NCBI GenBank assembly: GCA_027340875.1
Contig: DAIENX010000024.1
Coordinates: 1 to 48,796 of the forward strand
Direction of reading: 5' to 3'
DNA length: 48,796 nt
Source of the DNA: Elusimicrobiota bacterium
Lineage (GTDB): Bacteria > Elusimicrobiota > Elusimicrobia > Elusimicrobiales > UBA9959
Shown: positions 14,160 to 35,647 of the stretch, piece by piece
How the letters are laid out: every line of letters begins with the position of its first letter
Position numbering within the stretch: the first letter of the stretch is position 1
Notes under the pieces: model-generated
What the model saw: the letters and a program-made list of their open reading frames with translations, nothing else
What the model was told of the DNA's origin: nothing
Databases searched by the model: none
Made by a program: the position numbers and the translations under genes

Positions 14160-14774
14160 ATGAAAACGAGAATGGCGGTAGTCGCGGTGCTGACGGTTGC
14201 GGCGGGCGTGTTCGTCTACACGCGGCCGCACAACCACATCCCCACCGACCTGCGCGACGCGCCGGCGGACACCTGGAGCGACGGCACGGCCATGGGCCAG
14301 CTCGACGCCAAACACGCAGCCTCCGATATCAACGTCCCGGAACCCAAGGCGGCCGAGGCCGCCGGTTCGGGAGAAAAGGGGTTCTTTCAGTCATGGCCCA
14401 AGGACAAGGTCTTCACGTACGTAAGCCGGCGGTATGAAAACACGGGCGAAGCGGAAAAGTCGCGGGAAGGCTTCCTTTCCCGTCTGAAGGAAGTCAAAGC
14501 GGAGATCGTGAATGCTCCGGCCGTCGTTAAGGACAAGTCCGGGCATTATTACAAAGTTTCATTCCTCTCAAAAGAGATGCGGTGCGTGTGCTACAACAGC
14601 AAGGAGACGTTCACGTCAGAGTATAACGCTCTTTCAGCCATGATGGAGAAGGGCAATAGCCTGACGGATGACAAAGCCATAATCGCGGCCACGGATGTAA
14701 TCCCGACAGGAGAAAAGTCGTTCTCTTACAGGATTGTGTACTTTGAGAAGGCGTTTTTCAAACCTTGGTTCTAA
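14160..14774 (+). CDS. HIPxDLRDA-leader family protein 1, unknown cargo
   Basis: MKTRMAVVAVLTVAAGVFVYTRPHNHIPTDLRDA after a GGAGG RBS. Confidence 0.85.
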   Translation: MKTRMAVVAVLTVAAGVFVYTRPHNHIPTDLRDAPADTWSDGTAMGQLDAKHAASDINVPEPKAAEAAGSGEKGFFQSWPKDKVFTYVSRRYENTGEAEKSREGFLSRLKEVKAEIVNAPAVVKDKSGHYYKVSFLSKEMRCVCYNSKETFTSEYNALSAMMEKGNSLTDDKAIIAATDVIPTGEKSFSYRIVYFEKAFFKPWF

Positions 14775-14815
14775 GGGGACACAATACTCAATTCCGAAAT
14801 TAGCGCTGTGTCCCC
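14775..14815. repeat. REP-like hairpin, copy 1
   Basis: GGGGACACA-ATACTCAATT-CCGA-AATTAGCGC-TGTGTCCCC. Confidence 0.6.
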
Positions 14816-14858
14816 GGTTCCGGGAGCGCGGAGGCGGTTGATTTCAGGAGGAAACATT

Positions 14859-15680
14859 ATGAAAACGAAAATAGCGCTAGTTGCGGTATTGACGGTTACC
14901 GCGGGCGCGTTCTTCTACGCGCGGCCACACAATCACATCCCCTCCGACCTGCGCGACGCCCCGGCTGACAACGCCGTCGCCTTCGGGGAGCTCAAAAGCG
15001 GCTCCAGCGGCGTTGAAGCCCCCGTACCGGCGGAACCGGCGGCCGTGGAGGCGCCGGCGCCGGAAAGCGCCGATATCCGCGCCCGGGCGCTCCCGGTATC
15101 GGAGATCTTCAATACGGCGTCGGAAAAGAGCGCCGATCGCTCGGCGCGGGCAGCGTTGACGAAGAGCGCCGCTCCCGCTAGCCGTGAATACGCCCCGGAG
15201 GAACTGGGCCCATTGCGGCTGGCTCCCGGAGAGGCCCCTTTCGAAAAGCTCCGGGAAATGTTCAGCAAAGGCGTTCCCGCCACGCAGAAAGACATGGACG
15301 GCATCCGGGTAGGGCGGTTCGTCACGGCGAACGGCGACGTCTACGGCAAGCTTCTGGGGTGCTACGCCGGCCGGATAACCGGGCGCGTCAGGGTGAGGGA
15401 TATGGCGGCGAAGCGTCATGTCGGGGCGGATTATTTTGAGCACGTTCGGACGATCTGGGCCGTGCTGGAACACTACGAAGTCGCCGACAGATGGGATATA
15501 AAGTTTCCCGAGGCCATAGCCGCGTACGAAGAGGATAAAGAACTGATACAGGAATTCCGCGTCTCCGACGGCTGGATCGTGGCCGAGATGAGGAGGCATG
15601 GGGAACCAGGCGCGGTGGCGTACAGCTACTACTTCATACTCAGGAAAATACCAGCCAGGAACGCCCCCACGATATTTTAA
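14859..15680 (+). CDS. HIPxDLRDA-leader family protein 2, unknown cargo
   Basis: MKTKIALVAVLTVTAGAFFYARPHNHIPSDLRDA after an AGGAGG RBS. Confidence 0.85.
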   Translation: MKTKIALVAVLTVTAGAFFYARPHNHIPSDLRDAPADNAVAFGELKSGSSGVEAPVPAEPAAVEAPAPESADIRARALPVSEIFNTASEKSADRSARAALTKSAAPASREYAPEELGPLRLAPGEAPFEKLREMFSKGVPATQKDMDGIRVGRFVTANGDVYGKLLGCYAGRITGRVRVRDMAAKRHVGADYFEHVRTIWAVLEHYEVADRWDIKFPEAIAAYEEDKELIQEFRVSDGWIVAEMRRHGEPGAVAYSYYFILRKIPARNAPTIF

Positions 15681-15714
15681 GCGGGCGCGGCGCGCTGAAA
15701 AGCGAGGCAACCTT

Positions 15715-16668
15715 ATGAAAACGAGAATGGCGGTAGTCGCGGTACTGACGGTTGCGGCGGGCGTGTTCTTCTACACGCGGCCCCACAGCCACATCCCCTC
15801 CGACCTGCGCGACGCCCCGGCGGACAACGCCATAGGACAACTCGACTCCGGGCGCTCCGCGGACAAACTGGCCCTGCCGGTCCCGGTGACCGCCAGGGCG
15901 GGCGCCAACGTCCTGGCCCCGGCCAAGGCCATACAGTTGCGCGCCGCAGCCGGACAGTTCGACCCGTCGGCCTACTCCGTCTCGATGGCCGTCACCTGTT
16001 CGTATCTGGGCGGCATCTGGGCCCACCAGCACGACTGCGGCAGCCGCGCGCCCAAGGCCGAGCTCACCGCCGACGGCCGCCTGCTGCTGCCGGCCATAGA
16101 GGCTTTCGACGGCCGCGGCGGCTCCGACCCCGCCAACTTCGACCTGACGGTCACTCTCAGGAAGAAGAGCGACGGATCCACGCTGTTCACCCTGGGGGCC
16201 CGCGGCCGGGACGGCCTGGCGGCCTACGCCCTCAAGGCCGGAGCCATCAGCCTGGTACAGTTCGACCCGGCCAGAGTGGAAGTTTTCGTGGAGGGGAAAC
16301 CTCTGGCTGGCTCCGAACTCTCCCGCGACAAAATCGCTGTGCTGATGGCTTTCCTGGACCGCGAGCATACCTCGGCGGGCGACATAGACCAGGTAATCCT
16401 CGATACCCCGCTGACAGGGATACGCAGCTTCGACAACGCGCAACACAGCTATCCGAAGACCCCGCTCTCGCAGTTCCAGGCGCTCGAGTTCGAGCGTGGC
16501 GTCATAGCCGAATGGGCCGACAGTCCCCGCCCATGGGCTCTTTCCGCGGACCTCAGGCTGAGCCTGACCTATACCGTGATCGATAGCTACCGCGGCCGCG
16601 CCGAGATAACCAAGACGGTCGACGGCCTTGCCAGGATAGGCCGCATAGACCTGAAGAAAAAGAACTGA
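15715..16668 (+). CDS. HIPxDLRDA-leader family protein 3, unknown beta-rich cargo
   Basis: MKTRMAVVAVLTVAAGVFFYTRPHSHIPSDLRDA after a GAGG RBS. Confidence 0.85.
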   Translation: MKTRMAVVAVLTVAAGVFFYTRPHSHIPSDLRDAPADNAIGQLDSGRSADKLALPVPVTARAGANVLAPAKAIQLRAAAGQFDPSAYSVSMAVTCSYLGGIWAHQHDCGSRAPKAELTADGRLLLPAIEAFDGRGGSDPANFDLTVTLRKKSDGSTLFTLGARGRDGLAAYALKAGAISLVQFDPARVEVFVEGKPLAGSELSRDKIAVLMAFLDREHTSAGDIDQVILDTPLTGIRSFDNAQHSYPKTPLSQFQALEFERGVIAEWADSPRPWALSADLRLSLTYTVIDSYRGRAEITKTVDGLARIGRIDLKKKN

Positions 16669-16676
16669 CGCGGACC

Positions 16677-16712
16677 GGGCACATTATTTAATCCGGCAGG
16701 AGTGTTGTGTTC
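16677..16712. repeat. REP-like hairpin, degenerate copy 2
   Basis: GGGCACATTATTTAATCCG...GAGTGTTGTGTTC resembles 14775-14815, and both are followed by GTTCC(C/G)GG(A/G)AGC. Confidence 0.4.
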
Positions 16713-16751
16713 ACCGTTCCCGGAAGCAGTCGATCGCGCGGCGGCGGCATT

Positions 16752-18209
16752 ATGAAAAGCAAGATCGCAGTGGTTGCGGTATTGACGTTTACGGCGGGCG
16801 CGTTCTTTTACGCGCGGCCGCGCAACCACATCCCCTCCGACCTGCGCGACGCGGTGGCGGACAGCGGCGCCATGTCGGAACTTAAAACCGCAGGCCAGGA
16901 CATGTACGGGCAGGAACAGGTCCCCGCGCCGGCGGAGGCCGCTCCGGCCGCCGCTGAGGAGACCGCGCAAAAAGGCCTGCCATCCGCGCCTGCCGCCGTC
17001 AGAGAATGGACCGTTATGGTCTTCATGAGCGCCCGCAACAACCTGGGCGACAGCCGTATGCTCGGGTTAGCCGGGAAATTCGACAAAAAAGACCTGGCCG
17101 AAATGGCCCGCGTGGGCAGCACGGACAAAGTGAACGTGGTGGTAGAGCACGCCTCCAACGGCAAGCCGGCGCGGCGCCTGCTTATTACGAAAGGCGGCTC
17201 CGTCCCCTACGGGGAGTTCCCCGGCGCCGACATGGGCGACTACAACCGCTTGGCGGATTTCGCCGTCTGGACCAAGCGTGCTTTCCCGGCGAAGCGCTAT
17301 ATGCTGGTGGTCTGGGGCCACGGCCTCGGCTGGCTGGACCCCGCCAGGCGGCGACCGGAGGGCGGAGGGAACAAAGGGGTAGCTTTTGACGACGAGACCG
17401 GCAATTACATCCGCACGCGCCAGCTGGGCGAGGCGTTGCGCAGGATAGGGCATGTGGACGTGCTCATGCAGCACGCCTGCCTGATGCAGACGGCGGAAGT
17501 GCTCTACGAGCTGAAGGACGACGTGGGGCTGTTCGTGGGTTCGGAGGAGGAAATGCTGGCCCTGGGCTACGAGTATGACAAGCTGCTGGCCTTCCTGAAC
17601 GCCGATCCCGGGGCGACCTACGGCCGGCTCTCCGCGTTCCTCATGGCCAAACAGCGCGAGTACTTCGTCGCAGGCCTGCCGGTGGGCCCGGTCCGCGTCT
17701 CGCTCGAAGCCAAAGGGGCCACGCTCTCGGCGGTGCGCGGCGAGGCGCTTAAAGAGCTGCCTGCATATCTGGACGCTTTCGCGGACGCGGCCATGCGCAA
17801 CAGGGAGGAAGCCGCGGTGAAGAAGGCAGTATCCGCTGTGATACGGTTTGCCAGCCTCTACGCCGACGACGAGGATAAGCTGATGTCGCCCGGCATGGAC
17901 CTCTATGATTTTGCCCGCATAGTCGGCGCCAACGCCGAGAACCCGGAAACAAAGCGGGCCGCCGCCGGGCTGGCCGCTTTCATAAAGAACAGGCTGGTTG
18001 TGGATAGTGTCGGCATTAACCGCGACCGACGTAATGACTACACCTATGCGAAAGTGGGCGGCATCGCCATCAACATGACGCTGAAGGCGAAAAGTTTCCC
18101 GGCCAGTTTCGCGGGCGCTTTCGATGGCGAATACCGGGACCTGGCGCTCTCGAAGGATTCCCGCTGGGACGAGTTCGTGGAGTGGACGGACCGCGTCTGG
18201 CGCAGGTAA
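16752..18209 (+). CDS. HIPxDLRDA-leader family protein 4: clostripain (C11) peptidase cargo
   Basis: Leader, then EWTVMVFMSARNNL, ADMGDY, FPAKRYMLVVWGHGLGW, HACLMQ, GSEEE. Confidence 0.9.
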   Translation: MKSKIAVVAVLTFTAGAFFYARPRNHIPSDLRDAVADSGAMSELKTAGQDMYGQEQVPAPAEAAPAAAEETAQKGLPSAPAAVREWTVMVFMSARNNLGDSRMLGLAGKFDKKDLAEMARVGSTDKVNVVVEHASNGKPARRLLITKGGSVPYGEFPGADMGDYNRLADFAVWTKRAFPAKRYMLVVWGHGLGWLDPARRRPEGGGNKGVAFDDETGNYIRTRQLGEALRRIGHVDVLMQHACLMQTAEVLYELKDDVGLFVGSEEEMLALGYEYDKLLAFLNADPGATYGRLSAFLMAKQREYFVAGLPVGPVRVSLEAKGATLSAVRGEALKELPAYLDAFADAAMRNREEAAVKKAVSAVIRFASLYADDEDKLMSPGMDLYDFARIVGANAENPETKRAAAGLAAFIKNRLVVDSVGINRDRRNDYTYAKVGGIAINMTLKAKSFPASFAGAFDGEYRDLALSKDSRWDEFVEWTDRVWRR

Positions 18210-18249
18210 ACGGATTGCATAAAGTGGATGGTTTCAGTGAGGTGACCTT

Positions 18250-19131
18250 ATGAAAACGAAAATAACCTTAGTTGCGGTATTGGCGGTAACCGCGGGCGCG
18301 TTCTTCTACGCGCGGCCGCACAATCATATACCCTCCGACCTGCGCGACGCCCCGGCGGACACCTGGAGCGACGGCACGGCCATGGGCCAGCTGGACGCCA
18401 GACACGGCGCTTCGGAGATAAAGGCGCCCGATCCCAAGGCGGCCGCGGCCGGGGAAGAGTTCGCCGGGCGTAGGCCGCTCGCGCCCGGTTCCGTCCTCTA
18501 CGGAAAGCGCATAGACCGCCAGACCTTTTCCGCAGGCCTTTCTCTTGACCCCGCAACTTTTCGTGACCGCAGCGAGAGCCTGACTAAAGAGGTGGTTTAC
18601 CAGGCTTTCAAGGGGAAAGGGATGACGATCCTCTCTTATCGCGACCACTACTCCGTCCGCCATGCGGAATTCGTGGCTACCGGCAAGCCGGACAGCCGTA
18701 AGATCATCAAGGCGCTGGAAGCCCTCCCCGAGGTGGCCGAGGTGCGGGAGAAAGAGGCTTTCAGCGGGCCGGTGCGTTTAGCAATTGCATTTAAGGACGG
18801 AATTTATCCGCCAAGGCTGAAGGAGATCTTTGATATGTTCGCGGACCTCGAAGTGGCGCACGCCATCACGTACGGGAAGGGGGAATACGGGGACGTGCGG
18901 AACGCTATAGATGTGGAGATAGAGGTGACGGGCAACCCGGAAAGAGCGGCGATGTGGCTGCTTAAGAACATGTACGGCATAAAAAAAGAGAAGAACGGCA
19001 TGAAGCTGGCCGGGATAAACATGATGACCTTCTCTCCCGGAAGCGTGGATACAGAAGCGCTGGGAGTGGCCACCTGCATGGGCGACACCTGCACAGTGTC
19101 GAAAATAGGCGACCGCGCCGGAGAAAAGTAG
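18250..19131 (+). CDS. HIPxDLRDA-leader family protein 5, unknown cargo
   Basis: MKTKITLVAVLAVTAGAFFYARPHNHIPSDLRDA after a GAGGTG RBS. Confidence 0.85.
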   Translation: MKTKITLVAVLAVTAGAFFYARPHNHIPSDLRDAPADTWSDGTAMGQLDARHGASEIKAPDPKAAAAGEEFAGRRPLAPGSVLYGKRIDRQTFSAGLSLDPATFRDRSESLTKEVVYQAFKGKGMTILSYRDHYSVRHAEFVATGKPDSRKIIKALEALPEVAEVREKEAFSGPVRLAIAFKDGIYPPRLKEIFDMFADLEVAHAITYGKGEYGDVRNAIDVEIEVTGNPERAAMWLLKNMYGIKKEKNGMKLAGINMMTFSPGSVDTEALGVATCMGDTCTVSKIGDRAGEK

Positions 19132-19155
19132 CCGCAATTTTTTCAGGAATTATCC

Positions 19156-19195: not shown

Positions 19196-19233
19196 TCGGC
19201 TCCCTTCAAATTTCCCGCGGCAAAGGCCGGCAT

Positions 19234-20193
19234 ATGGCGAAGAACAAAGGCGTTAACGCGGCGGCAATGGCCGCCCTTCTCCAGCTCGCGGCCGGCTCCG
19301 GCGGCGCGGCTCCGGCCTTTGTATATCTGCGCGGCTATCCGGGCGACATCCTCTATGCCGACGGCTCGCGGACCCTGGACATCACCCCGCCAGGTTTCGC
19401 GCGCAAGGCCGGCAACCCCTCCGTGTCGCCGGACGGGAAAAGGGTGGTCTTTCCCGCCAACCTCGACGACAACTGGGACCTGTACCTGGGGGAGTTCGAC
19501 GGCTCGCGGCTGGCCGGCGTCCGGCCGCTGACGCGGACGCCGCGGGACCGAGAGGAGGACCCCAGGTTCTCCCCGGACGGGAAACGGATCGCCTACCGGG
19601 GCGGCTCCAACGCCTCGTCCCGGATCTTCATCCATGAATTGTCCACGGGACGTTCCCGGCAGGTGACCACGGACGCCGCCGGCGAGGAATGGGCGCCGGC
19701 TTTCAGCCCGGACGGCAAATGGCTGGCCTTCACGCGCGGCACATCGAGGACCGAGCCGCGCGCGGACGTTTACCTGGTCCCGGTTTCTGGCGGCCCCGCG
19801 CGCCGGCTGACATATAACGGCGGGGTGGACTGGTACCCTTCCTTCTGCGCCGACGGCACGCTGGTGTACGTCTCGCAGCGCGGGGACGGCAATGACGACG
19901 ACCTTTACGCCATTCCGCCCGGACGCCTTGGCGAGCCAAGGCCGGACGACTTTGCCCGGCGCCTGCCGGTAAATTCCCACGCCAGCGAGGCCGACCCGGT
20001 CTGTTTCGCGGAGGGCGGCGCCGGTCTGGCTTATGTCTCGAACGCTTCCGGGCGGTACGCGGTTTATATCTGGGCCCCGCCGGCGGCGGCGTCCGCGGCG
20101 GCGTCCGACCCCGGCGGCGACCTGCTTGGCCCGGTTATCATCGCCGGCGGAAAGCCGAAGGCGGCCGCGGAACAGGACACGGCGAGGAATTAG
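19234..20193 (+). CDS. TolB-like PD40 (WD40-like) beta-propeller protein
   Basis: Repeated PSVSPDGKRVVF, PRFSPDGKRIAY, PAFSPDGKWLAF. Confidence 0.85.
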   Translation: MAKNKGVNAAAMAALLQLAAGSGGAAPAFVYLRGYPGDILYADGSRTLDITPPGFARKAGNPSVSPDGKRVVFPANLDDNWDLYLGEFDGSRLAGVRPLTRTPRDREEDPRFSPDGKRIAYRGGSNASSRIFIHELSTGRSRQVTTDAAGEEWAPAFSPDGKWLAFTRGTSRTEPRADVYLVPVSGGPARRLTYNGGVDWYPSFCADGTLVYVSQRGDGNDDDLYAIPPGRLGEPRPDDFARRLPVNSHASEADPVCFAEGGAGLAYVSNASGRYAVYIWAPPAAASAAASDPGGDLLGPVIIAGGKPKAAAEQDTARN

Positions 20194-20325: not shown

Positions 20326-22281
20326 ATGGGTGATAAGAGGAAATGGGTATTTGCGGCGGCGGTGCTGGCGTCCTTTATTTACTCCTGCGCCATGCGCCGC
20401 GCCGCGACGGCGCACATCCCCTCCGACCTGCGCGACGCGGTGGCGGACGCGCCGTTCTCAGCCGCGGAGCGCGCGCTGATAAAGGAGTGCGGCGACAACG
20501 TGCGCCACGACGGCCCTCGCTCGCCGGAAACCGCTGTCCGCTGCGCGGAGGCTTTCAGCGAGGGCGCGCCGGAGCCGCTGGTGAATAGATTCTCCGAAGA
20601 CGATCCGGCCATGGCCGGTCTTATCCTGGGCCGCAACAACGCGCTCATTGACCTGAAAAAGATAGTGTCCACCCAGAAAGGCCGCGGCGCCGTTATTGCG
20701 CTGGAGCGCATGTGGAACGTGCCCTCCGGGCCGGCGAAACCCGCCGACTGGAGGCCCGCGGACTGCGCGCTTTGCGACATGGGCCTTGGACCGAAGCCGG
20801 AGCACATCTCGGACTGGCTGGGCAGATACAGCCCGGAGGACCGCGCCGCCATCGAATACGCTTTCCGCCTGTGGGATTCGCTCGGTCCCGTGCGCCAGAA
20901 GTCGCTCTCCGGCGGCAAGTACCAGCGGACGCGCGAGAACTGGGACGCCGAGGGAGCCCGCCGCCGCTTCGCCTACCTCGGCATGTGGGCCGGCCTGGAA
21001 TGCGAGAAGGCCGCCGCCGCGGCTGAAACGCTGGCTATTTCCCCGCCGGACCGGACAAAACTGGAAACGTTGGCGTCCATCTTCAGCGACGATCTTGAAG
21101 TGGCCGGGATCTCGGATCTCTCCTGCGTCGAGCGTATCAGGTCCGCGCTGAACTCGGCCCCGGTCGGAGACGGCCGGGGTTCTGTTCCGCCGCAGGAGAA
21201 AAAGACCGCCGGCCTTGCCGCAGCTAAAGGGCGGACCGCCGGCCTCTCCGGCAAGAGCGTAGAGGACCAGAGGAGCGGTCTCGGGGGACTGTTCGACAAC
21301 AGCGCCGGCGGCGCGGAACCGACTGCCGCCGGTAGCGGCGCGGCTGCGCTCGCCTCCCGCGGAACGCCGGCGCCGCAGCAGTTGACGCTGAAGCAGGTGG
21401 ACGAACTTGGTTCGCGGATGCTGCGCATGGAGGACGGCAAGATAAAAGGCGATCTGGCCGAGGTAATGCGGCAGACCGCCGCCGGCCGGCGCGCCCTGGC
21501 TTTCTACGAGGACCCGGCTTACGCCAAAGCCGGCACCAACAGGCTCGACTTCGGCTTCGACCTGGACAGGGGATACCTCGGCGTATGGCGGCCCGACACC
21601 AGGCAACTGCGGCTGAACCTGACGGCCGCCGAGGAGTTCGCCGAAGCGCGCGGCACGACGCTGCCGCGGCTCATAAAAGACCCCGCTGGCATGAAGGCCC
21701 TGGCGGCGTACCTCTCGCCGATCATGGTGCACGAGGCGGAGCACCAGAACCAGACCGCCCGCGCCGCGGCCGCGGGGGTGGACTGGGTGAAGTACGGCTC
21801 CGGCCCCGGAAAAAGCTCCCCGTACACCCGCGCCATGGAAAACCTTTCCAACAAAGAAGGCACGGAGCACGCCATCGAATACTGCCGCAAACACGGCGGC
21901 GCGGCCTGTCTGGCGGGGATGAATACGGTCGTGCGCGAGGACATAAGGAAATTCATGGAGGACGGCCTGTCCGGCCTGGACGCGAGCAAGGCGCCTGTCT
22001 ACTCGCACATAGACGGTTACGAAGGCGGCGTGTCGCGCGAGTTCCGCGAGGCGCAGCTGCGCGCCTTCCAGCTCAACACCCTGGAAACCCTCAAGCGCGG
22101 CCACCCGGAACTGATGACGCCCAAGCGCGAGAGCGAGCTGAAAGAGCTGCGCGAACTGATGAACACCCGCTTTAAGTGGTACCTGCAGACCCGGCGCGAA
22201 CTCCAGGAGGCCGAGCGCGAGGCGCTGGAGTTCCGGCGCAAGTACGCCGACAGCCTCTCAATGGCGCCTTCGCCGCTGTAA
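20326..22281 (+). CDS. HIPxDLRDA-leader family protein 6 with a putative zincin (HExxH) region
   Basis: TM leader plus HIPSDLRDAVAD. SPIMVHEAEHQNQ with a downstream Glu (RAMENL). Confidence 0.75.
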   Translation: MGDKRKWVFAAAVLASFIYSCAMRRAATAHIPSDLRDAVADAPFSAAERALIKECGDNVRHDGPRSPETAVRCAEAFSEGAPEPLVNRFSEDDPAMAGLILGRNNALIDLKKIVSTQKGRGAVIALERMWNVPSGPAKPADWRPADCALCDMGLGPKPEHISDWLGRYSPEDRAAIEYAFRLWDSLGPVRQKSLSGGKYQRTRENWDAEGARRRFAYLGMWAGLECEKAAAAAETLAISPPDRTKLETLASIFSDDLEVAGISDLSCVERIRSALNSAPVGDGRGSVPPQEKKTAGLAAAKGRTAGLSGKSVEDQRSGLGGLFDNSAGGAEPTAAGSGAAALASRGTPAPQQLTLKQVDELGSRMLRMEDGKIKGDLAEVMRQTAAGRRALAFYEDPAYAKAGTNRLDFGFDLDRGYLGVWRPDTRQLRLNLTAAEEFAEARGTTLPRLIKDPAGMKALAAYLSPIMVHEAEHQNQTARAAAAGVDWVKYGSGPGKSSPYTRAMENLSNKEGTEHAIEYCRKHGGAACLAGMNTVVREDIRKFMEDGLSGLDASKAPVYSHIDGYEGGVSREFREAQLRAFQLNTLETLKRGHPELMTPKRESELKELRELMNTRFKWYLQTRRELQEAEREALEFRRKYADSLSMAPSPL

Positions 22282-26026: not shown

Positions 26027-26183
26027 GGCTCGCTTTACATCTCCGACAATCTCTCTTTCCGGCTGTACACCCCGGAAGAGAACAACTGGTTCATCCCGGT
26101 ATTCTCTTTCAGCGAGACCGGCGTGTGGAAATACGCCCCTGCGGCCCTCCGGGAAACGGAGACCGCCGAGGGCCGGCGGATTT

Positions 26184-26466
26184 ATGGCGAAGAACAAAGG
26201 CGTTAACGCGGCGGCAATGGCCGCCCTTCTCCAGCTCGCGGCGGGTTCCGCCGGCGCGGCTCCGGCCTTTGTATATCTGCGCGGCTATCCGGGCGACATC
26301 CTCTATACCGACGGCTCGCGGACCCTGGACATCACCCCGCCAGGTTTCGCGCGCAAGGCCGGCAACCCCTCCGTGTCGCCGGACGGGAAAAGGCTGGTCT
26401 TTCCCGCCAACCTCGACGACAACTGGGACCTGTACCTGGGGGAGTTCGACGGCTCGCGGCTGGCCG
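26184..26466 (+). pseudogene. Truncated near-identical duplicate of the 5' 283 nt of the TolB-like gene (19234-19516)
   Basis: Only a few substitutions relative to 19234-19516. Similarity ends abruptly after GGCTGGCCG. Confidence 0.9.
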
Positions 26467-29626: not shown

Positions 29627-29674
29627 ATCCTTATGAAGCCCGGCGGCAAAAAACCGGTAATAGAGAGGAAGAAT

Positions 29675-31912
29675 ATGAACAAGAACATAAAGACCCTGAT
29701 GGCGGCCATAATGTGCGTCTGCGCGGCGCAGGCCGGCGCGGCGGACTTCGGCCCGGAGGCCCTCTCGGGCCTGTCCTTTTCGGACGGGGTGAGGGCGCTC
29801 AAGGAACAGTCCGCGGCTCTCGGAACGCCCGCCGTTTCCACGGCCGCGCCGGTCTCTACGGAACTGCAGCATTTCATGGAGGAACTGGGGCGGGACGTGG
29901 CCGACAGCGTCTGCCGCAACGCCCAGCTCAAGCTGAACCGTGAAAGCACGCTGGCCGACGTAGCCGGCCTTTCCGGCGGCTTCCGCCGGCGCTTCCGCAG
30001 GTACGCCGACGGCAAACTGGCCCTGCTGGACGAGGCGAACGTCACCCTAATCAGCAATCTGGGCAACGAAACGCTGCACCTGCCGAACCTGGGCGCGCTG
30101 GGCGTAAATATTTCCGCTGTTCTGGACGGCCGGTCCCAGGTGGTGCGCCCGCTGGAGAGCGACCGCTACTGCAAGGAGATGAAAACGCTCTTCAAGCTGC
30201 GCGAGGTGAAGACAATTATTCCCGCCACGGCCGGGCGTATAGCCGCCATGAAGAACGGCGAGCTCTGGAAGCTGCCTATTACGCTGCACTTCGGCTTCAG
30301 CGTGGGCGCCGGCGCCAACGTGGGCGGCAACCTGGCGGTCTCCGTCTCTGCCGGCACGGCCAAGGAGCGCAAGCCGTCCGTGACGCTTTACCGCATGGAC
30401 GAGGGCAAACTGCGCCTGCGCCTGCGGCTGGACCGCGTCAGCGTGCGCAGCTCCGGTATCTCGCTTTCGGCCATAGAGGTGCCCTTCTCCGACATAGGCC
30501 AGGCCGGCGCCGAGAACCTCTTCGCCCGCGAACTGGGCAAGGAATGGGCCAGGGAGGCCAACAAGAACCTGGCCTTCAGGCTGTCCTTCGGCCGGTCCAC
30601 CAGCCTCGGCAAGCGGCTGCTGCTGGAGTTCATCCTCGACCCGCGCGACCAGGCGCAGATGGCCGGTCTGGAGAAGTTCCTGCGGGGCGACCTGGGCGTG
30701 ATCAAACGCTTCATAGAGATGGGGCTGCGCTTCGACAACCTCTCCGAGGACGAGAATGTCGCCGAAGGCGCCGGCGAGATAGAAGGCATTTCAGGGGAAG
30801 CCGGGCAGACCATAGGCGCGCAGGCCGCTTTCGCCGGCAGCAACCTCTACCACGGCCACGGCCACAGCGTGCAGGTGCAGCTCCCGATACTGCACAACCA
30901 GACCGTGGGCTGGGGCTCGGCCTATAACCGTTACCAGTCGCTCGCCAGGGACGGCGAGACGCTGCACGCCCAGTCCTACAGCCGCACCTCCAACGCGGCC
31001 TCCATTAACATCCCCTTCATAGGCAGCAACTCCAAATACGACTCCTCGCGCGGCGTCACCGTGGTGAACCGCGAGCGCAAGGACGGCTCGGTTACCCGCG
31101 CCAGCCTGATGTACAACCAGTACGAGGGCTTCGTCAGCGACGGCGACAACGCCGCCCGCTACATGATGAACAACGCCAACGGCGTGCTCAAGTACGTGGG
31201 CCGCCGCGGCGACGGCGTGGATAATTCCAACACCGTGCCGGCCATGGGGCTCTTCCCGCCGGACTTCGGCCAGCCGGTGCCGCCGCAGGTGGTGAAGACC
31301 AAGCTCTACGACAAGGTGATAATGAGCTTCAGCCTGATGATCAACGCCAACGGCGTGGAGGAGGTTGTGCTGGCCCCGGCCAACGCCATCCTGCGGGCCT
31401 ACCTGAACATGATGCGCGAGGCCGAAGGCGCCATCCTGGACAAGGTGGCCGACCTCTTCAGCGTCGGCGCAAAAGGCGAGGTCTCCTACGACAGGGCCGA
31501 AGCCGCCCGCCGCCTGGGAGCCTCGGCGCTGGATTCCGCCAGTTCCGACAGCCCCCTCAATATAGTCCACAGGCTGGCCTATACCGCCGCCTGCGTCATA
31601 AGCGACATAGCCTCCGCCCGCGACGCCGCCGGCTGGAAGGAGCGCTCGGAGAAGCTGGCCATGTCCGTGGGCGGCCGGTCCCGCAGCGGCCTGAAGTACG
31701 AGGATTTCCTCAAGGTGGCCGTGCAGCTGGTCAGCCCGGAGAACGTCTCCGCCTCGGTGTACGTCCTCACCGACAAGGGCGTGCCCGGCGAAGCCGACGT
31801 AGCGCAGACCTACAGGTTCTTCAACACTTCCGACAACAGCGTGGGGGAGGACATGACCGAGGTGACGCAGATGGCCAACCGCTTCGCCGCCGGCTCGGAG
31901 CTGACGGACTGA
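29675..31912 (+). CDS. Large exported hypothetical protein (about 745 aa)
   Basis: GAGG RBS. Signal peptide MNKNIKT...AQAGA. Host-like codon usage. Confidence 0.85.
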   Translation: MNKNIKTLMAAIMCVCAAQAGAADFGPEALSGLSFSDGVRALKEQSAALGTPAVSTAAPVSTELQHFMEELGRDVADSVCRNAQLKLNRESTLADVAGLSGGFRRRFRRYADGKLALLDEANVTLISNLGNETLHLPNLGALGVNISAVLDGRSQVVRPLESDRYCKEMKTLFKLREVKTIIPATAGRIAAMKNGELWKLPITLHFGFSVGAGANVGGNLAVSVSAGTAKERKPSVTLYRMDEGKLRLRLRLDRVSVRSSGISLSAIEVPFSDIGQAGAENLFARELGKEWAREANKNLAFRLSFGRSTSLGKRLLLEFILDPRDQAQMAGLEKFLRGDLGVIKRFIEMGLRFDNLSEDENVAEGAGEIEGISGEAGQTIGAQAAFAGSNLYHGHGHSVQVQLPILHNQTVGWGSAYNRYQSLARDGETLHAQSYSRTSNAASINIPFIGSNSKYDSSRGVTVVNRERKDGSVTRASLMYNQYEGFVSDGDNAARYMMNNANGVLKYVGRRGDGVDNSNTVPAMGLFPPDFGQPVPPQVVKTKLYDKVIMSFSLMINANGVEEVVLAPANAILRAYLNMMREAEGAILDKVADLFSVGAKGEVSYDRAEAARRLGASALDSASSDSPLNIVHRLAYTAACVISDIASARDAAGWKERSEKLAMSVGGRSRSGLKYEDFLKVAVQLVSPENVSASVYVLTDKGVPGEADVAQTYRFFNTSDNSVGEDMTEVTQMANRFAAGSELTD

Positions 31913-32200: not shown

Positions 32201-32239
32201 TGCTGATGGGAACAGGGAAGCCTGTTCCGAGGATGGGCG

Positions 32240-33964
32240 ATGTCTATGTTATTCTCTGATGCTCTGCGCAAGTTGAGGAAAGACGCCGGGTTTCCTACTG
32301 CCTACCGCTTTTTTCATGATAACGGCGGACAGGCGGCGCTCGGGTTTTCCTACCGGCAATACATGGGCATGGAAAGCGGAATGCTGCCGGACGCGGACAA
32401 ATTGAGCCGGCTTATTCAGGCTCTCCGGCTCTTTTACCTGTCTCCGTGCTCCAACAGGCTCATAACCGCGTGGCTGCGCACGCGCGCCGGCGACGAGGCT
32501 TATGACCGGCTTATCAAGCCTTTCCTGCCTGCGCCGACCGAAGAAGAGGTTAAGACCCCCCTGTACGGTCTGGTGCGCGCGATGATGAGGGAACGGTCCT
32601 ATTACCTTTCCCACGAGCAGTTCGCGGCGTCCATGGCGGATTATCCCACGTACCTCTGTTACATGGCGCTGATCTCGGATACGGGGTTATGGTCTTCCGA
32701 CGGCCTGGCCGGGGCGCTGCACATTCAAAAAGAGGATGCGGACCGCGCGCTGAAGCGGCTGGCTGCGGCTAAAATAGCCAAAAGGGTGAGGCCGGGCCTC
32801 TACAGATGCGCCTTTCCACACAGGATGGTGCAGACTCCGCGGCTGAGCGCGATCTCCGCGGAACTATATAAAAAAGCTGATGAGAACGTCACGCGCCTGG
32901 CCGCGACCGCGGAAACGCGGCTGCACGAGGGGGTCTTCGTGCGGGCGGACAAGGACCAGTTCCTGGGGCGTTTCTCGCCTTCGCTGCGTTTCGCGGTCGA
33001 GGCGTCGCACGGCTACAGCGTGCAGGAAAAAAGCCCTACGACGGCGATCTTTTACGTGGAAGGGCGGGTGGTCCAGGTGTGTGACTTCCGGCGCGGACGC
33101 GTGGAGGAAGAGCCGCGCGGGAGAACGCGGTTCTCGGATACGCTCAGGAAGTTCAGGCTGGAAGCCGGCTATCCGACGGCTTACAAGTTTTACCACGGCT
33201 GCGGAGGGCGGGCCGCCCTTGGAATATCCTACCGCCGCTATCTGCTGCTGGAACAGGGTGAGCCTCCGGAGGGAGGAGTGCTCCTGAAACTGCGGCTTCT
33301 CCTGTCTCCCGCGCCGCCTGACGCGCGCGCCGGCGCCTTTGTCGCGGCCTGGATAAGGACTGTGGCCGGAGAGGAGACCTACAACGGGCTGATCTTGCCT
33401 CTGCTTTCCGCCGCGGCAGGCGGGACGCACCCTCCGGCCGCGCAGGCAGGGCCGGCATGCGGCAGGCCGGAGTTGCGGCTGCTCTCGCTGCCGCAGGCGG
33501 AAGCGGTATTGTACGACTATGACGCTTTTGTCTGTTTTACCGCTCTCAGCGCGGATGGCGGAGTCTGGACCCCGCCCGGGCTTTCCGGTGCGCTGCGGCT
33601 TGATGCCGCCGCGGCCAGGAAAGCGCTGCAACGGCTGGCTAAGGCGGGGGTGTTGCTGAAAGAAGGCGCAAACGGCTGCAAATCCGCTTTTGCCCCCGCG
33701 GCCGCGGACCTGCCAAGAACGGACATGGACTCCGGACTGCTCCGCAAATTGGGAACTTATACCGACAGGTTCGCGGGGAGCGGCTGTCTGCGTCACAGGG
33801 CCAGGAACTTCTTCCGGGCGGAGGCGGGGGAGGTTATGGGAAGCTACCTGCCGTTGCTGCGGCAGAGCCTTGAGACTGCGCGCAACAGCGGCGTCCGCGG
33901 GGGAACGGAGGATTCCACCCTTTTTTACGTCGAATGCAGCCTGGCGAAAGTCCGGGATTTCTGA
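32240..33964 (+). CDS. Two-unit fusion of putative HTH regulators (XRE-like HTH, winged helix and C-terminal domain, twice)
   Basis: FSDALRKLRKDAGFPTAYRFF and FSDTLRKFRLEAGYPTAYKFY. The halves align to 40761-41612 and 41622-42467. Confidence 0.75.
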   Translation: MSMLFSDALRKLRKDAGFPTAYRFFHDNGGQAALGFSYRQYMGMESGMLPDADKLSRLIQALRLFYLSPCSNRLITAWLRTRAGDEAYDRLIKPFLPAPTEEEVKTPLYGLVRAMMRERSYYLSHEQFAASMADYPTYLCYMALISDTGLWSSDGLAGALHIQKEDADRALKRLAAAKIAKRVRPGLYRCAFPHRMVQTPRLSAISAELYKKADENVTRLAATAETRLHEGVFVRADKDQFLGRFSPSLRFAVEASHGYSVQEKSPTTAIFYVEGRVVQVCDFRRGRVEEEPRGRTRFSDTLRKFRLEAGYPTAYKFYHGCGGRAALGISYRRYLLLEQGEPPEGGVLLKLRLLLSPAPPDARAGAFVAAWIRTVAGEETYNGLILPLLSAAAGGTHPPAAQAGPACGRPELRLLSLPQAEAVLYDYDAFVCFTALSADGGVWTPPGLSGALRLDAAAARKALQRLAKAGVLLKEGANGCKSAFAPAAADLPRTDMDSGLLRKLGTYTDRFAGSGCLRHRARNFFRAEAGEVMGSYLPLLRQSLETARNSGVRGGTEDSTLFYVECSLAKVRDF

Positions 33965-34081
33965 CGTTTACCGTAGTCAACTGCGGCAGTTCTTGTTTAT
34001 CGAGGAGAATGACGGAGATACTACGGAAGCTATGATAATGGGCATGATGTCAGTTATGGCGAAGGTGCGCCGGAGGGTGCT

Positions 34082-34474
34082 ATGGCGAAACGGTTGCTGA
34101 TAATTGACGACAACGAGGGCTACGCGAGTATCGTGGCCAGGTACTTCGTGGCCGTAGGCGGCTACGAGGTGGAAACCGCGTGCTGCGGCGCCGAGGGGTT
34201 GGAGAAAGCCTCTCGGATGAAGTTCGACGTGGTGCTGGCTGACATGATGCTGCCGGACATGGACGGCTGCGACGTGGCCAGGGAGCTGGAGAGGAAAGGC
34301 GTGGAGTCCCCGGTGGCTATACTGTCGGGATATGAAGCCCAAAAAGTGATCAAGTGGGGCATGGCGAAAAGCGGGCTGCCAGGGAACCTGCGGCGGGTCC
34401 TTTCCAAGAGCGAGAAGCTTGGCGAGATCCTTGTCAAAGTGAACGGACTGTCTGGTGACGCCCTGGCGGTATAG
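34082..34474 (+). CDS. Stand-alone response regulator receiver
   Basis: LLIIDDN, LADMMLPDMDG, LSG. GGAGG RBS. Confidence 0.88.
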   Translation: MAKRLLIIDDNEGYASIVARYFVAVGGYEVETACCGAEGLEKASRMKFDVVLADMMLPDMDGCDVARELERKGVESPVAILSGYEAQKVIKWGMAKSGLPGNLRRVLSKSEKLGEILVKVNGLSGDALAV

Positions 34475-34613
34475 GTTTTCGCCCTGCCCTGGTTCGTCCG
34501 GACAACGCGGGCATCGGCCGGCCTGAACAGCGGCATATCTTCGGCCAAGCATTGTCGAAGTCCGCGCAGAACTTGTTCCAGCTGCGCCAGGAAAGCGGGA
34601 TACGTAGCAATAA

Positions 34614-34659
34614 TAGGTCCAATGGTCCTTGCCTATCCGGATATTTCCCTCAATAATAT
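34614..34659 (+). promoter_or_regulatory. Putative promoter with dyad box TAGGTC-CAAT-GGTCCT
   Basis: The box overlaps TTGCCT. AT-rich -10 candidates at 34652-34659. Precedes leader-family gene 7. Confidence 0.45.
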
Positions 34660-34690
34660 ATTCAATAACCGGAAAGCCCGTGGTTGCATT

Positions 34691-35647
34691 ATGAAAACGC
34701 CGCTCAGGATGATAGCTGCCGCGACGATAACCGCCGCCGCCGCGTTCTATCTTTACGGCCAGCGGCCGCAGAGTCATATTCCGGCGGATCTCAGGGATGC
34801 CGTGGCCGGCAGCGCCGCGGAACAGCTCGGCTATGACAAGGGCGCGGATGTCCCCGTCCCGGTGCCGGGCCCGGCGCAGGCCGCAGCCGGCAAGAAGATA
34901 TATGTTTCCGGCTGGCCGGCGGACGGTGTTCCCGGACGGCCGGTGGAATGGGTCAGGTTCGGAGGTGGCAGGTTCTTGATGGGCGCAGAGGACCTTAGAT
35001 TCTGTCCTGAAGCCCGGCCCGCTCACGAGGCCGCGGTAAAGCCTTTCGAGCTCTCCCGGACCCTCGTGACGGTGGAGCAATACGCCGAATGCGTGGTCAG
35101 GGGCAAGTGCCCGCTTCCAGGCACCGATAAGAACAGCAACGCCGGCGCCAACTGCAACTGGGGCAAGGAAGGCAGGCAGTTCCACCCCATAAACTGCATC
35201 ACCTGGGAGCAGGCCAGGCAGTACGCCAGGTTCAAGGGCGCGAGACTCCCTACCGAAACCGAATGGGAATTCGCCGCCACCGGCGGCGGCAGGGCGCAAA
35301 AATATCCATGGGGCGACGAACCGCCGACCTGCGCCCGGGCCGTGATGGACGAAGGGGGCCCCGGCTGCGGCGGCAAGGCGACAATGCCCGTCTGCTCCAG
35401 GCCGAAAGGCAACACGGCGCAGGGACTTTGCGACATGGCCGGCAACGTAAGCCAGTGGCTGGAGAATAAGGCCACCAGTTCTTACGGCGGCGAGGCGGAC
35501 TGGATGCCCAAGCGGGCCACCAGGGGCGGGAATTTTTACCGGGACGGCGGCGAGAGCGGCTATCTGAGGGCCCAGTTCCGCGATTTCGGCATGGAAGACG
35601 AAGTGAAGGACTACAACGGCTTCCGCATCGCGCGCTATCCCCGCTGA
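34691..35647 (+). CDS. HIPxDLRDA-leader family protein 7: formylglycine-generating-enzyme (FGE-sulfatase / CLec fold) cargo
   Basis: RPQSHIPADLRDA, then GGRFLMG, HPINCITWEQA, RLPTETEWEFAA, GLCDMAGNVSQW, RGG..GFRIAR. Confidence 0.9.
   Translation: MKTPLRMIAAATITAAAAFYLYGQRPQSHIPADLRDAVAGSAAEQLGYDKGADVPVPVPGPAQAAAGKKIYVSGWPADGVPGRPVEWVRFGGGRFLMGAEDLRFCPEARPAHEAAVKPFELSRTLVTVEQYAECVVRGKCPLPGTDKNSNAGANCNWGKEGRQFHPINCITWEQARQYARFKGARLPTETEWEFAATGGGRAQKYPWGDEPPTCARAVMDEGGPGCGGKATMPVCSRPKGNTAQGLCDMAGNVSQWLENKATSSYGGEADWMPKRATRGGNFYRDGGESGYLRAQFRDFGMEDEVKDYNGFRIARYPR

Follow-up and report, generated by a model that had tools for sequence, protein, structure and literature searches.

A conserved N-terminal leader that resembles a lineage-specific anchoring or sorting signal on unrelated cell-envelope enzymes of Elusimicrobiota

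Seven genes in the window, the whole 48,796-nucleotide stretch of Elusimicrobiota DNA analysed here, encode proteins that share a short N-terminal leader and nothing beyond it. The leader resembles a lineage-specific anchoring or sorting signal heading hundreds of unrelated cell-envelope enzymes in the family of the source organism. The best reading in brief is a Sec-type signal anchor (or a short cleavable signal) that fixes a docking or processing box above the inner membrane, before a flexible stalk. In its favoured form, the leader would be a lineage-specific modular Sec-type export leader, retained as a signal anchor with a docking or recognition box, and not the mark of a gene family; we tentatively assign this a probability of about 0.4.

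All seven genes lie on the + strand. As the first-pass annotation had described, each begins with MK(T/S)K, followed by 16-17 uncharged residues ending in aromatic ones and then by (RP)xxHIP[STA]DLRDA. They are listed with a neighbouring peptidase gene (a slash marks the signal peptide cut):

13096..14022, + strand: trypsin-like serine peptidase with an ordinary signal peptide (..AGSAAA/GDKSIYG)
14160..14774, + strand: leader gene 1 (g14160), 204 aa; leader residues 1-37 (14160-14270), linker ending in ..INVPEPKAAEAAG; cargo of no known family
14859..15680, + strand: leader gene 2 (g14859), 273 aa; leader 14859-14969; cargo without a Pfam family
15715..16668, + strand: leader gene 3 (g15715), 317 aa; leader 15715-15825; cargo without a Pfam family
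16752..18209, + strand: leader gene 4 (g16752), 485 aa; leader 16752-16862; cargo a clostripain-family C11 cysteine peptidase (Peptidase_C11, PF03415, 9.6e-33)
18250..19131, + strand: leader gene 5 (g18250), 293 aa; leader 18250-18360; cargo without a Pfam family
20326..22281, + strand: leader gene 6 (g20326), 651 aa; divergent leader 20326-20448 (includes ..IYSCAMRRAATAHIPSDLRDAVAD); cargo with an HExxH motif (VHEAEHQ)
34691..35647, + strand: leader gene 7 (g34691), 318 aa; leader 34691-34810; FGE-sulfatase/C-type-lectin-like cargo (PF03781, 5.4e-41)

The C11, HExxH and FGE/CLec assignments made earlier were borne out, and a Pfam search of the seven proteins found no family in the five other than g16752 and g34691. 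The g14859 cargo has a leader-bearing relative in another genome (locus L022 of G022). Five such relatives of the g18250 cargo occur in other genomes, and this cargo gave no usable match in the ESM Atlas. Three C11 genes lie in the window, together with one trypsin-like gene.

In an all-against-all BLASTP comparison, similarity among the seven proteins was confined to residues 1 to about 65-87, which comprise the leader and the Pro/Ala linker. The E values for this region ranged from 1e-11 to 3e-33 among six proteins and were about 1e-3 in pairs with g20326. No cargo-versus-cargo HSP was better than E 0.1, so that the proposed complete divergence past the leader holds and the genes are not plain whole-gene paralogues. 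The five tandem copies are 60-84% identical over their 213-nt 5' ends. The first 67 residues of g14160 and g18250 are 75% identical, and the two proteins are unrelated beyond.

The leader was nearly exclusive to these genes within the genome. The pattern IP.DLRD, searched in six frames through the whole 2,805,542-base assembly, occurred at exactly seven sites, those of the seven genes. An HMM of the seven leaders recovered all of them (E 6.5e-25 to 4.1e-17) among 33,450 stop-to-stop ORFs, and a weaker eighth match, 'AVPADLRDAPAD' (E 2.8e-4), lay on contig C70 in a paralogue of the HExxH gene g20326. The shorter string DLRDA was found 20 times in six-frame translation against 5.2 expected from composition, and 8 of the 20 sites lay 27-33 residues past a start Met with a hydrophobic stretch; for P.DLRDA the genome-wide expectation was 0.5. 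Longer upstream starts are possible in the ORF list, but the MK(T/S)K ATG is preceded by a GGAGG-like site, and DNA conservation starts only at this ATG. The box codons differ synonymously, being CACATCCCCTCCGACCTGCGCGAC in most copies and CATATTCCGGCGGATCTCAGGGAT in g34691. Because the box survives synonymous codon changes and nothing is conserved upstream of the ribosome-binding site, the leader is real and under protein-level selection.

The leader has a regular anatomy. After M-K-x-K comes an uncharged stretch of 16-17 residues, in which [TAIV]-[AP]-[GAS] is conserved and precedes an aromatic cluster. Next are a short polar turn (T/A-R-P-x-x-x) and the box [IV]-P-[SAG]-D-[LFI]-R-D-A-[VP]-[AS]-[DG], located 7 residues past the hydrophobic core. 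About 15-20 variable residues then lead to a [VI]-P-x-P or Pro-Ala linker, after which comes one of dozens of periplasmic domains unrelated to each other. In 42 aligned leaders, collected by profile search and by a regex for the box, P, R, D and A of the box were invariant. Counted from the gene callers' own starts, the box Pro lay 27 residues from Met in 69 of 147 proteins and 29 in 41. Of 139 leaders, a set picked by the box regex, 116 had an uncharged run of 16-17 residues; one set used for flank charge and aromatic belt was picked in the same way, so that box invariance in these two sets is partly circular. The hydrophobic stretch was charged on both flanks, with an aromatic belt on the outer side. 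The AF2 model of residues 1-80 contained a helix from 2 to 21 (pLDDT about 95), helical turns from 29 to 47 (pLDDT 66-70) and otherwise coil; the box may start a short amphipathic helix, a part of the model with low confidence. Among the 139 leaders a lipobox occurred once and twin arginine or prepilin motifs never, in keeping with the original impression that these signals do not apply. Isolated 65-residue leaders matched nothing in Pfam-A and NCBIfam at E up to 10, the sole rows (13.7 and 12.4 bits) falling under the cut-off, and the element thus still appears undescribed.

The distribution was sharply restricted. The leader profile was positive in 33 of 47 sampled genomes of the source's family and in none of the 118 and 89 genomes of two other large families, and the leader is rare elsewhere in the class. 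A library of 1.84 billion representatives yielded 203 protein clusters at E<=1e-3; among the best 150 of these, 147 had the box inside the first 75 residues. These profile-hit sets, like the profile hits feeding the alignment, are free of the regex circularity. The box kept the same spacing in at least seven genera with a mean leader identity of about 35%, only the box being invariant. Other families of the class have small four-haem cytochromes with a transmembrane stretch and 'FPADLRDSVGE'. That the leader has no special function and is shared only because the 5' end of one gene was recently duplicated in tandem is disfavoured and scarcely credible: the five tandem copies would suit it, but not the synonymous changes inside the box, the variants on cytochromes or the persistence of box and spacing across genera and clusters.

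The cargo is housekeeping-type periplasmic machinery and not an effector family. Across the family it includes FGE/PorK-like, trypsin-like, DegS-like HtrA (trypsin+PDZ), C11, MlaC, M23, glutaminyl cyclase and ChaN proteins and many unknowns. Pfam assigned 28 of 149 cluster representatives to 11 families in total and left 121 with none, and 55 cargos fell into 25 BLAST clusters. Toxin, adhesin or immunity-type families were absent among 150 representatives and 30 relatives.

Several cargos also occur with ordinary signal peptides. The trypsin-like protein at 13096..14022, itself with such a peptide, shares 48-52% identity with seven trypsin-like proteins of sister genomes that bear the leader. 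A leader-negative genome (G393) encodes an orthologue of the g34691 FGE protein, 54% identical, with an ordinary signal peptide, and MlaC orthologues were also found with AxA signal peptides. Within the source genome, contig C53 carries a pair of g15715 paralogues (51% and 41% identity) with AxA signal peptides, and g16752 has more than ten leaderless C11 paralogues, with AxA signal peptides among them. Besides the weak-leader paralogue on C70, g20326 has one on C86 with an ordinary signal peptide, 43% identical to P0113, which is itself a relative 62% identical to g20326. The leader-MlaC gene of G024 includes 'KSIYGADDRLDYY', the N-terminus of the trypsin-like family. The occurrence of the same cargo orthologues with AxA signal peptides in this and sister genomes indicates that the leader is an exchangeable module for export. 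It may move between genes through recombination at the 5' end and be interchangeable with cleavable signal peptides on orthologous cargo.

We propose that the hydrophobic stretch enters the membrane in N-in orientation and is retained as a signal anchor, its uncleaved state being suggested by anatomy. The enzyme would then be suspended from the inner membrane by a flexible stalk of 30-60 residues, and the box, about 7 residues above the membrane, might be a common docking or recognition site for a putative shared envelope partner. Several observations cast doubt on parts of this. In 116 of 139 leaders the small residues of [TAIV]-x-[GAS] conform to the -3/-1 rule for signal peptidase I, and the h and c regions of a normal signal peptide together also give an uncharged run of 16-17 residues, which weakens the case for an uncleaved anchor. 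The DegS-like trypsin+PDZ class among the cargos is membrane-anchored in model bacteria and favours an anchor; MlaC is a soluble shuttle there, and its presence speaks against one. The docking-site reading is weakened by the low AF2 confidence for the box helix and by the search for a partner, in which no conserved non-leader neighbour was seen across 70 leader loci. No dedicated export or sorting gene was found to co-occur with the leader.

An unlikely alternative, though one to be taken seriously, is that the leader is a short signal peptide cut by signal peptidase I after [TAIV]-A-[GAS]. The aromatic cluster would form the mature start, and the box, some 12-15 residues in, would be a variant of the lineage's post-signal module for docking, sorting or as a pro-segment of soluble periplasmic or secreted proteins. 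The -3/-1 rule is satisfied at positions -14/-12 in the 116 leaders, and the ordinary signals on orthologous cargo suggest a soluble destination. At least 20 exported proteins of the genome with clear AxA sites have the mature start x-[DE]-[FL]-x-x-[LM]-x-A-x-D-[LI]-[RK]-A ... [VI]-P-x-P, examples being ANA/FELEGLKASDLRAPAQDFQTPAP and, in the G393 FGE orthologue, AYA/ADFGDLGGVKAAGLKA..VVPEV. A leader cut after AG(A) would place [LI]-[RK] at mature +14/+15 in both FFYARPHNHIPSDLR and ADFGDLGGVKAAGLK. D-[LIFM]-[RK] also peaked at mature positions 11-15, with 14 cases (4 of them leader genes) against about 2-7 per other 5-residue bin. However, the signal-peptide heuristic was crude and chose AxA sites by the same rule under test, and a profile-profile comparison of the leaders with the post-signal module gave a probability of 0.8% with only VPxP aligned, which does not support homology of the two boxes. 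The cut would also fall within the hydrophobic stretch, so that the mature protein would start with 3-4 aromatic or hydrophobic residues and the h-region would be only about 9 residues long, and the near-fixed length of the n plus h region would go unexplained.

It is improbable that the leader is a removable pro-anchor, holding the protein at the membrane until a cut at ..D-L-R/D-A.. by a C11 or trypsin-like protease, or at an intramembrane ..A-G/A-F.. by rhomboid, releases it, as a bacterial counterpart of PEXEL-type cleavage or of ectodomain shedding. The box Arg is invariant, with K or R at the equivalent place in the post-signal module. In a by-eye line-up of MlaC (L075) and gene 26673 with leader proteins, the signal peptidase cut gives a mature N-terminus just past ..RDA. 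Arg/Lys-type proteases, C11 and trypsin-like, are among the commonest cargos and neighbours, and the trypsin-like protein was the only or best profile match in several genomes (L015/G005, L017/G020, L018/G006). This family has an Asp six residues ahead of the catalytic Ser (..DLD[AT]FGGNSGSP..), which we take to correspond to Asp189 of trypsin. Yet these proteases could simply be abundant envelope enzymes, in 11 of 58 leaders the residue after the box Ala is Pro, and cleavage sites of this kind seldom have Asp at P1'. Rhomboid was present in all 33 leader-positive genomes of the family and absent from 8 of the 14 negative ones, but genome size explains this co-occurrence, because rhomboid is missing only from reduced genomes. 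A second S26 paralogue likewise tracked only genome size. All 75 genomes sampled from ten other class families (f4, f5, f6, f7, f9-f14) encoded rhomboid, and of the genomes of these families searched with the leader profile at most one matched.

The first-pass annotation had proposed a targeting, anchoring or processing tag of a polymorphic surface or effector family. A real conserved leader on unrelated cargo stands; the polymorphic family, with a constant trafficking head, variable toxic or adhesive tails and cassette exchange, is very improbable. The tandem array, the mosaic 5' ends and the arrays of G024, which include truncated leader-only ORFs, would fit such a family. Against it are the housekeeping cargo, the small size of the head (about 40 residues), the leaderless orthologues and the scattering of leader genes over genomes, most copies elsewhere being single genes on separate contigs.

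The leader can be compared with known systems. YSIRK/GxxS, KxYKxGKxW (TIGR03715) and ESPR (PF13018) are likewise lineage-restricted conserved N-terminal export leaders on unrelated exported proteins, probably with an extra routing or handling step beyond plain Sec export. Their motifs are situated in the n-region, ahead of the hydrophobic core, on Gram-positive surface or type V secreted proteins, whereas the box described here follows the core. Specialised-signal models run against nine leaders gave at best TIGR03715 on one of them (E 0.1, 12.4 bits, cut-off 18). Lipoprotein post-signal codes (Lol-avoidance and the Bacteroidota lipoprotein export signal) also combine a short code after a membrane-embedded signal with a reach-setting flexible linker; disordered N-terminal tethers of lipoproteins were reportedly described by El Rayes et al. 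The leader differs in lacking the lipobox Cys (in all but one of 139) although Lgt and LspA are encoded in the genome, and its anchor, if kept, would be a peptide helix instead of an acyl group. In TonB/TolA, DegS and NapC/NrfH-type cytochromes, too, a Pro/Ala-rich spacer joins a periplasmic domain to an N-in transmembrane helix, and a DegS-like protease and small multihaem cytochromes themselves bear the leader or its box. Their anchor belongs to one family, whereas the leader is a cassette common to dozens of unrelated domains with an invariant juxtamembrane motif; no ExbBD/TolQR-type link to it was seen. The Plasmodium PEXEL or host-targeting motif (RxLxE/Q/D, cut by plasmepsin V) is likewise short, charged and at a fixed distance past a hydrophobic signal on many unrelated exported proteins. 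It is unrelated in sequence and belongs to a eukaryotic ER system with known cleavage and reader, whereas for the leader both are putative. If the leader were cleaved, it would recall N22 of curli CsgA, a conserved mature N-terminal segment serving as an address for a downstream envelope partner. N22 serves one secretion substrate family through the known channel CsgG; leader cargos are mostly periplasm-resident enzyme types, to which no channel was linked. The leader is missing from curated family libraries and heads hundreds of unrelated envelope enzymes in one bacterial family.

The seven + strand genes that the first-pass annotation had credited with a common N-terminal leader were confirmed by their translations, by a six-frame regular-expression search and by a leader profile. 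They are named here by their starts in the window:

14160, + strand: g14160, leader gene
14859, + strand: g14859, leader gene
15715, + strand: g15715, leader gene
16752-18209, + strand: g16752, leader gene with a C11 peptidase domain
18250, + strand: g18250, leader gene
20326-22281, + strand: g20326, leader gene encoding the HExxH protein
34691, + strand: g34691, leader gene with an FGE-sulfatase domain

Each product begins with MK(T/S)K and 16-17 uncharged residues, the last of which form an aromatic cluster, and continues with (T/A)RPxxHIP[STA]DLRDA[PV]A[DG]. The leaders of g20326 and g34691 are looser versions of this consensus. We call P-x-D-L-R-D-A the box and everything downstream of the leader the cargo. 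Some frames in the ORF listing could be extended to upstream TTG, GTG or ATG codons. When the DNA of the seven 5' regions was aligned, conservation began at a GGAGG-like site a few bases 5' of the MK(T/S)K ATG, and no conserved DNA was seen 5' of that site. The starts first assigned to these genes are therefore likely. The regular expression IP.DLRD, applied to six frames of the whole assembly (112 contigs, 2,805,542 bases), returned the seven sites and no others. A profile of the seven leaders searched against 33,450 ORFs recovered the same seven (E 6.5e-25 to 4.1e-17) together with one gene on contig C70, a paralogue of the HExxH gene that bears AVPADLRDAPAD. Composition predicts 5.2 occurrences of DLRDA in the six-frame translation; 20 were observed, eight of them in a leader-type N-terminal context.

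The cargos of the seven are unrelated, also as proposed: in an all-against-all BLASTP comparison, similarity was confined to the first 65-87 residues. The products of g14160 and g18250, for instance, were 75% identical across 67 residues and unrelated beyond. Pfam recognized the domains of g16752 and g34691 and gave no match for the other five genes. The cargos of g18250 and g15715 had no usable feature match in the ESM Atlas, every structure row having a TM value below 0.5.

A search of 1.84 billion cluster representatives with the leader profile gave 203 proteins at E ≤ 1e-3, 56 of them at E ≤ 1e-10. Among the best 150 of the 203, the box lay within the first 75 residues in 147, and two more had a degenerate box. 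The lone false positive, P0087, carries RCC1 repeats (..GQTDVPSDLRDVVAVAAGG..) that mimic the box; leader models should consequently demand an N-terminal hydrophobic stretch. A Pfam family (E ≤ 1e-5) was assigned to 28 real members of these 150 representatives, and 121 had none. The 28 included FGE-sulfatase (10), trypsin-type (5, one with PDZ), C11 (3) and Lcl_C (3) domains, and single cases of MlaC, ChaN, alpha-L-fucosidase, glutamine cyclotransferase, M23, Lnb_N and Tyr-phosphatase. Similar cargo, plus a phosphodiesterase and a trypsin-HEAT-FGE fusion, was carried by thirty relatives within the genus and by one in a neighbouring family. BLAST grouped 55 cargo regions into 25 clusters, with FGE and trypsin joined in one of them through this fusion. 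The suggestion of a polymorphic surface or effector family found no support in this inventory, which consists of ordinary extracytoplasmic enzymes and holds no toxins or adhesins. A polymorphic toxin system, with its large head, C-terminal toxin and adjacent immunity, fits poorly: the head is just ~40 residues long and the cargo is FGE, trypsin, C11, Lcl_C, MlaC and the like.

The geometry of the leader is rigid. In an alignment of 42 leaders, assembled from profile hits and the box regular expression, the P, R, D and A of the box were invariant and the first D nearly so. The distance from the initial Met to the box Pro, measured from the gene callers' own start codons, was 27 residues in 69 of 147 leaders, 29 in 41 and 25-31 in 135. 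Among 139 leaders drawn from an independent protein library, 116 had 16 or 17 residues in the uncharged run after MK(T/S)K, a Sec-type hydrophobic region behind a basic n-region. Membership in the sets of 139 and 147 was prefiltered by the box regular expression, so that box invariance there is partly built in; the profile results are unaffected. A [TAIV]-[AP]-[GAS] triplet occupies positions -14 to -12 from the box Pro, with three or four aromatic or hydrophobic residues between it and T/A-R-P. Downstream of the box, a variable segment of about 15-20 residues leads to [VI]-P-x-P and then to a stretch rich in Pro and Ala. AF2 modelling of residues 1-80 with a 40-row alignment gave a confident helix at residues 2-21 (pLDDT ~95), low-confidence helical turns at 29-47 and coil thereafter.

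The lipoprotein, Tat, prepilin and extended signal classes did not account for this arrangement. A lipobox-like string ([LVI][ASTVI][GAS]C) was found in just one of the 139 leaders, and among the seven only g20326 has a Cys within the leader. Lgt and LspA are present in the genome, so the leader is no substitute for a missing lipoprotein pathway. The twin-arginine motif was found in none of the 139, and no Tat model of NCBIfam or Pfam matched either. In prepilin signals a short basic leader closes with G and is followed by F/M-T-L-I-E and hydrophobic residues; this motif too was absent from all 139. The proposal that the leader lies outside described Pfam domains was borne out, since it had no Pfam-A or NCBIfam match in whole proteins or in nine isolated 65-residue leaders (E ≤ 10), where the only rows were two sub-threshold chance matches, one of them to TIGR03715 (NCBIfam). 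In the parts of the literature open to searching, nothing on the motif was found, and the string SDLRDA stood in no paper. The leader has functional likeness to specialised signal peptides (YSIRK, KxYKxGKxW, ESPR) and to post-signal lipoprotein sorting codes with disordered tethers, and it resembles PEXEL in logic. In the YSIRK, KxYKxGKxW and ESPR signals, however, the motif lies in the n-region before the hydrophobic core, whereas the leader box follows the core, and none of these family models reached its cut-off on the nine isolated leaders. The leader is a member of none of these groups, because every testable defining feature was absent. We rate it as a lineage-specific export or anchoring leader with a previously undescribed box.

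The leader can take the place of an ordinary signal on similar cargo. The window's trypsin-like serine peptidase gene at 13096 encodes a plain signal peptide, ..AGSAAA/GDKSIYG (a slash marks the cut). In seven relatives of its product (48-52% identity), the leader, the box and a linker of ~30 residues precede the same KSIYGxDDR start. In a genome of the genus that lacks the leader, the orthologue of the FGE gene (54% identity) starts with MKRILIAAVMLGLAGGAYA/ADFGDLGGVKAAGLKA..VVPEV, and MlaC has an ordinary signal in genome G112 and the leader in G024. Within the source genome, ordinary AxA signals are found in six trypsin-like genes, more than 10 C11 genes, two g15715 paralogues (51% and 41% identity) and a g20326 paralogue, itself 43% identical to the relative P0113. 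From these exchanges on like cargo, we infer that the leader moves by recombination at gene 5' ends and substitutes for the normal signal peptide. The MlaC gene of G024 (L076, or L021:11578-12360, on contig C28) is a mosaic of the leader, the linker, the 13-residue KSIYGADDRLDYY and a complete MlaC domain. The 13 residues are a piece of the trypsin-like protease family N-terminus, and the gene is direct evidence of recombination between the 5' ends of leader genes.

Of the 47 genomes sampled in the same family, 33 had leader matches with the 42-sequence profile; the matches were spread over seven genera and numbered up to 10 per genome, with at most 18 candidates scored in each. Family members without the leader belong mostly to small-genome genera (1.4-2.1 Mb). 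The same profile detected no leader in the 118 and 89 genomes of two other well-sampled families. Weaker matches in two other families of the class were genuine variants; one such protein begins MRTKAILGLSLVLIPALYLAVAHRNHLNVPSDLKDAPNSG...IVPEV. Others are small cytochromes of ~190-210 aa with four CxxCH motifs (L125 on G351:C25, L122 on G261:C24, L126 on G335:C62), in which an N-terminal hydrophobic stretch precedes FPADLRDSVGE, VPSDLRDSVGE or PPLDLRDAVGS. Their occurrence in two other families implies that the box is older than the family that uses it widely. In most genomes the leader genes lie on different contigs, and arrays like that of the window were seen on G024:C28 (six copies, including truncated ones) and G022:C16 (three copies). 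A word-index search with residues 1-45 of g14859 returned only the genome's own two copies, the method being too insensitive for such a query. Among the sequencing runs listed as containing this DNA none was of RNA; the four DNA runs came from a single study, and two of them may be its source.

At least 20 exported proteins with AxA signals share a different mature start, x-[DE]-[FL]-x-x-[LM]-x-A-x-D-[LI]-[RK]-A, followed by 6-10 residues and [VI]-P-x-P. This post-signal module may be a second undescribed N-terminal module. It was found at:

29633-31912: exported protein, mature start ADFGPEAL..
about 37046-37267: exported protein, MKKCAMVASVLCMAGGGNA/ADFGAFCGVTAAGLKEG
source assembly (G000), contigs C53, C78, C22, C80, C5, C29, C63, C69, C71, C72, C93 and C52: further genes with the module

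With a 16-segment profile of the module, 22 of the best 24 genome matches lay directly behind a signal-peptide-like N-terminus, 16 of these 22 being the seeds. D-[LIFM]-[RK] peaked at mature positions 11-15, with 14 cases against about 2-7 in the other five-residue bins; four of the 14 were leader genes. A 20-row profile, built from the source genome alone, was tried on 22 genomes from within the family, where it matched 8, and on 278 from outside it, where it matched none. The leader box resembles the second half of the module (IPSDLRDA compared with KASDLRAP, RASDIRAM and RAADLKAQ). A profile-profile comparison (hhalign) did not support homology, giving a probability of 0.8% and aligning only VPxP, and the putative link between box and module is a lead, not a result.

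Other features of the window were as follows:

499-1755, 13096-14022, 16752-18209, 20326-22281 and 27613-29022: C11, trypsin-like and HExxH genes
6132-6989: alpha/beta hydrolase
19234-20193: PD40 beta-propeller gene
19233-19516 and 26183-26466: direct repeat, 284 nt, 98% identity
25838-26206: short ORF, putative transposase fragment from its appearance
32240-33964: protein with two ~285-residue halves in tandem and a weak DUF4423 match

The window is a peptidase-rich island, with three C11 genes, one trypsin-like gene and one HExxH protein alongside the hydrolase and the PD40 protein. Contig C53 of the same assembly holds a sister island of paralogues (g15715 relatives, C11 genes and others) with ordinary signals and the post-signal module. 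The direct repeat gives the 5' end of the PD40 gene a second, truncated copy 6.9 kb downstream, which the short ORF adjoins. The DUF4423-like protein lies upstream of the leader-FGE gene, and single-length relatives adjoin leader-FGE genes in two other genomes (L022, L009/L049); it may be a local regulator.

Across ~70 loci, the only recurrent non-leader neighbours were an RRM protein beside trypsin-like genes, the DUF4423-like protein beside FGE genes and artefacts of alternative reading frames in GC-rich DNA. The PD40 gene inside the window array did not recur at other loci. The short, second S26 signal peptidase I paralogue was rejected as a reader of the box; it is missing only from reduced genomes (the small-genome genera) yet present in several leader-negative genomes, and is thus not leader-specific. 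Every one of the family's 33 leader-positive genomes has a rhomboid. This co-occurrence does not single it out as a dedicated reader, since a rhomboid was also found in all 75 sampled genomes of ten other families (f4, f5, f6, f7, f9-f14), where the leader profile matched at most one genome. Rhomboid genes occur throughout the class and are missing only from reduced genomes. Of 37 sampled f2 genomes, mostly 95-99% complete, 36 gave no PF01694 match, and none was found in the small-genome genera g7, g10, g13 and g14 of f1, with 14 of 14 control genomes positive. This looks like lineage-wide loss in reduced Elusimicrobia. Complex prediction with residues 27-308 of the 13096 product (8-row alignment) and leader residues 18-60 (40-row alignment) scored 0.00 in both runs and gave no verdict.

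The data establish that the N-terminus is Sec-type and rigid in length, that an invariant charged box stands behind it at a fixed distance, that a flexible linker leads on to unrelated periplasmic cargo, and that the leader is interchangeable with ordinary signals. We favour the reading that the leader would be an uncleaved N-in signal anchor, tethering the enzyme to the inner membrane and presenting the box above it as a docking site. It is favoured because the hydrophobic run has charges on either side, closes with an aromatic belt without AxA behind it (the run ends ..FFYA-RP) and keeps a constant length while its sequence drifts. The cargo also argues for an anchor, since DegS-like proteases and small multihaem cytochromes, which are membrane-anchored in model organisms, carry the leader. 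The main rival is that signal peptidase I cuts at the small-residue triplet, so that the mature protein would carry the box close to its N-terminus, like proteins with the post-signal module. In 116 of 139 leaders a [TAIV]-x-[GAS] fits positions -3/-1, but its place is four to five residues within the hydrophobic run. Were the cut at ..AG(A)/, the [LI]-[RK] pair would stand at +14/+15 in leader and module proteins alike. In a third reading, the protein would be released by a rhomboid or by cleavage at the invariant Arg.

Beyond the anchor, a bolder proposal is that the box would serve as the address label in an undescribed Elusimicrobia pathway for sorting or maturing envelope proteins, and so be the bacterial counterpart of PEXEL-type elements. 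A dedicated reader at a fixed height above the inner membrane would recognize it on dozens of unrelated pro-enzymes and release or station them. Candidates for the reader are a C11 or trypsin-like protease with Arg specificity that cuts at DLR/DA, a rhomboid that cuts at AG/AF, and a docking scaffold; E-L-x-x-L-x-A-x-D-L-K-A ... VPxP behind ordinary signals would be a second entry. We consider this proposal as a whole unlikely, at roughly one chance in five.

Leaders common to unrelated proteins have repeatedly led to dedicated sorting machinery, as with sortases, exosortases, type IX secretion and PEXEL. The leader described here lies outside the curated libraries and has a very rigid geometry. 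The envelope enzymes that it marks are a defined set, and they come from a diderm lineage that is uncultured and, to our knowledge, almost unexplored in its envelope biology. A leader model would flag hundreds of 'hypothetical' proteins as extracytoplasmic, and the single invariant R-D-A box offers a clean handle for fusion and proteomic work. If a reader exists, it would represent a new protein-sorting or maturation step. If there is none, the leader would still be a clear natural case of signal or anchor cassettes moving between genes by recombination.
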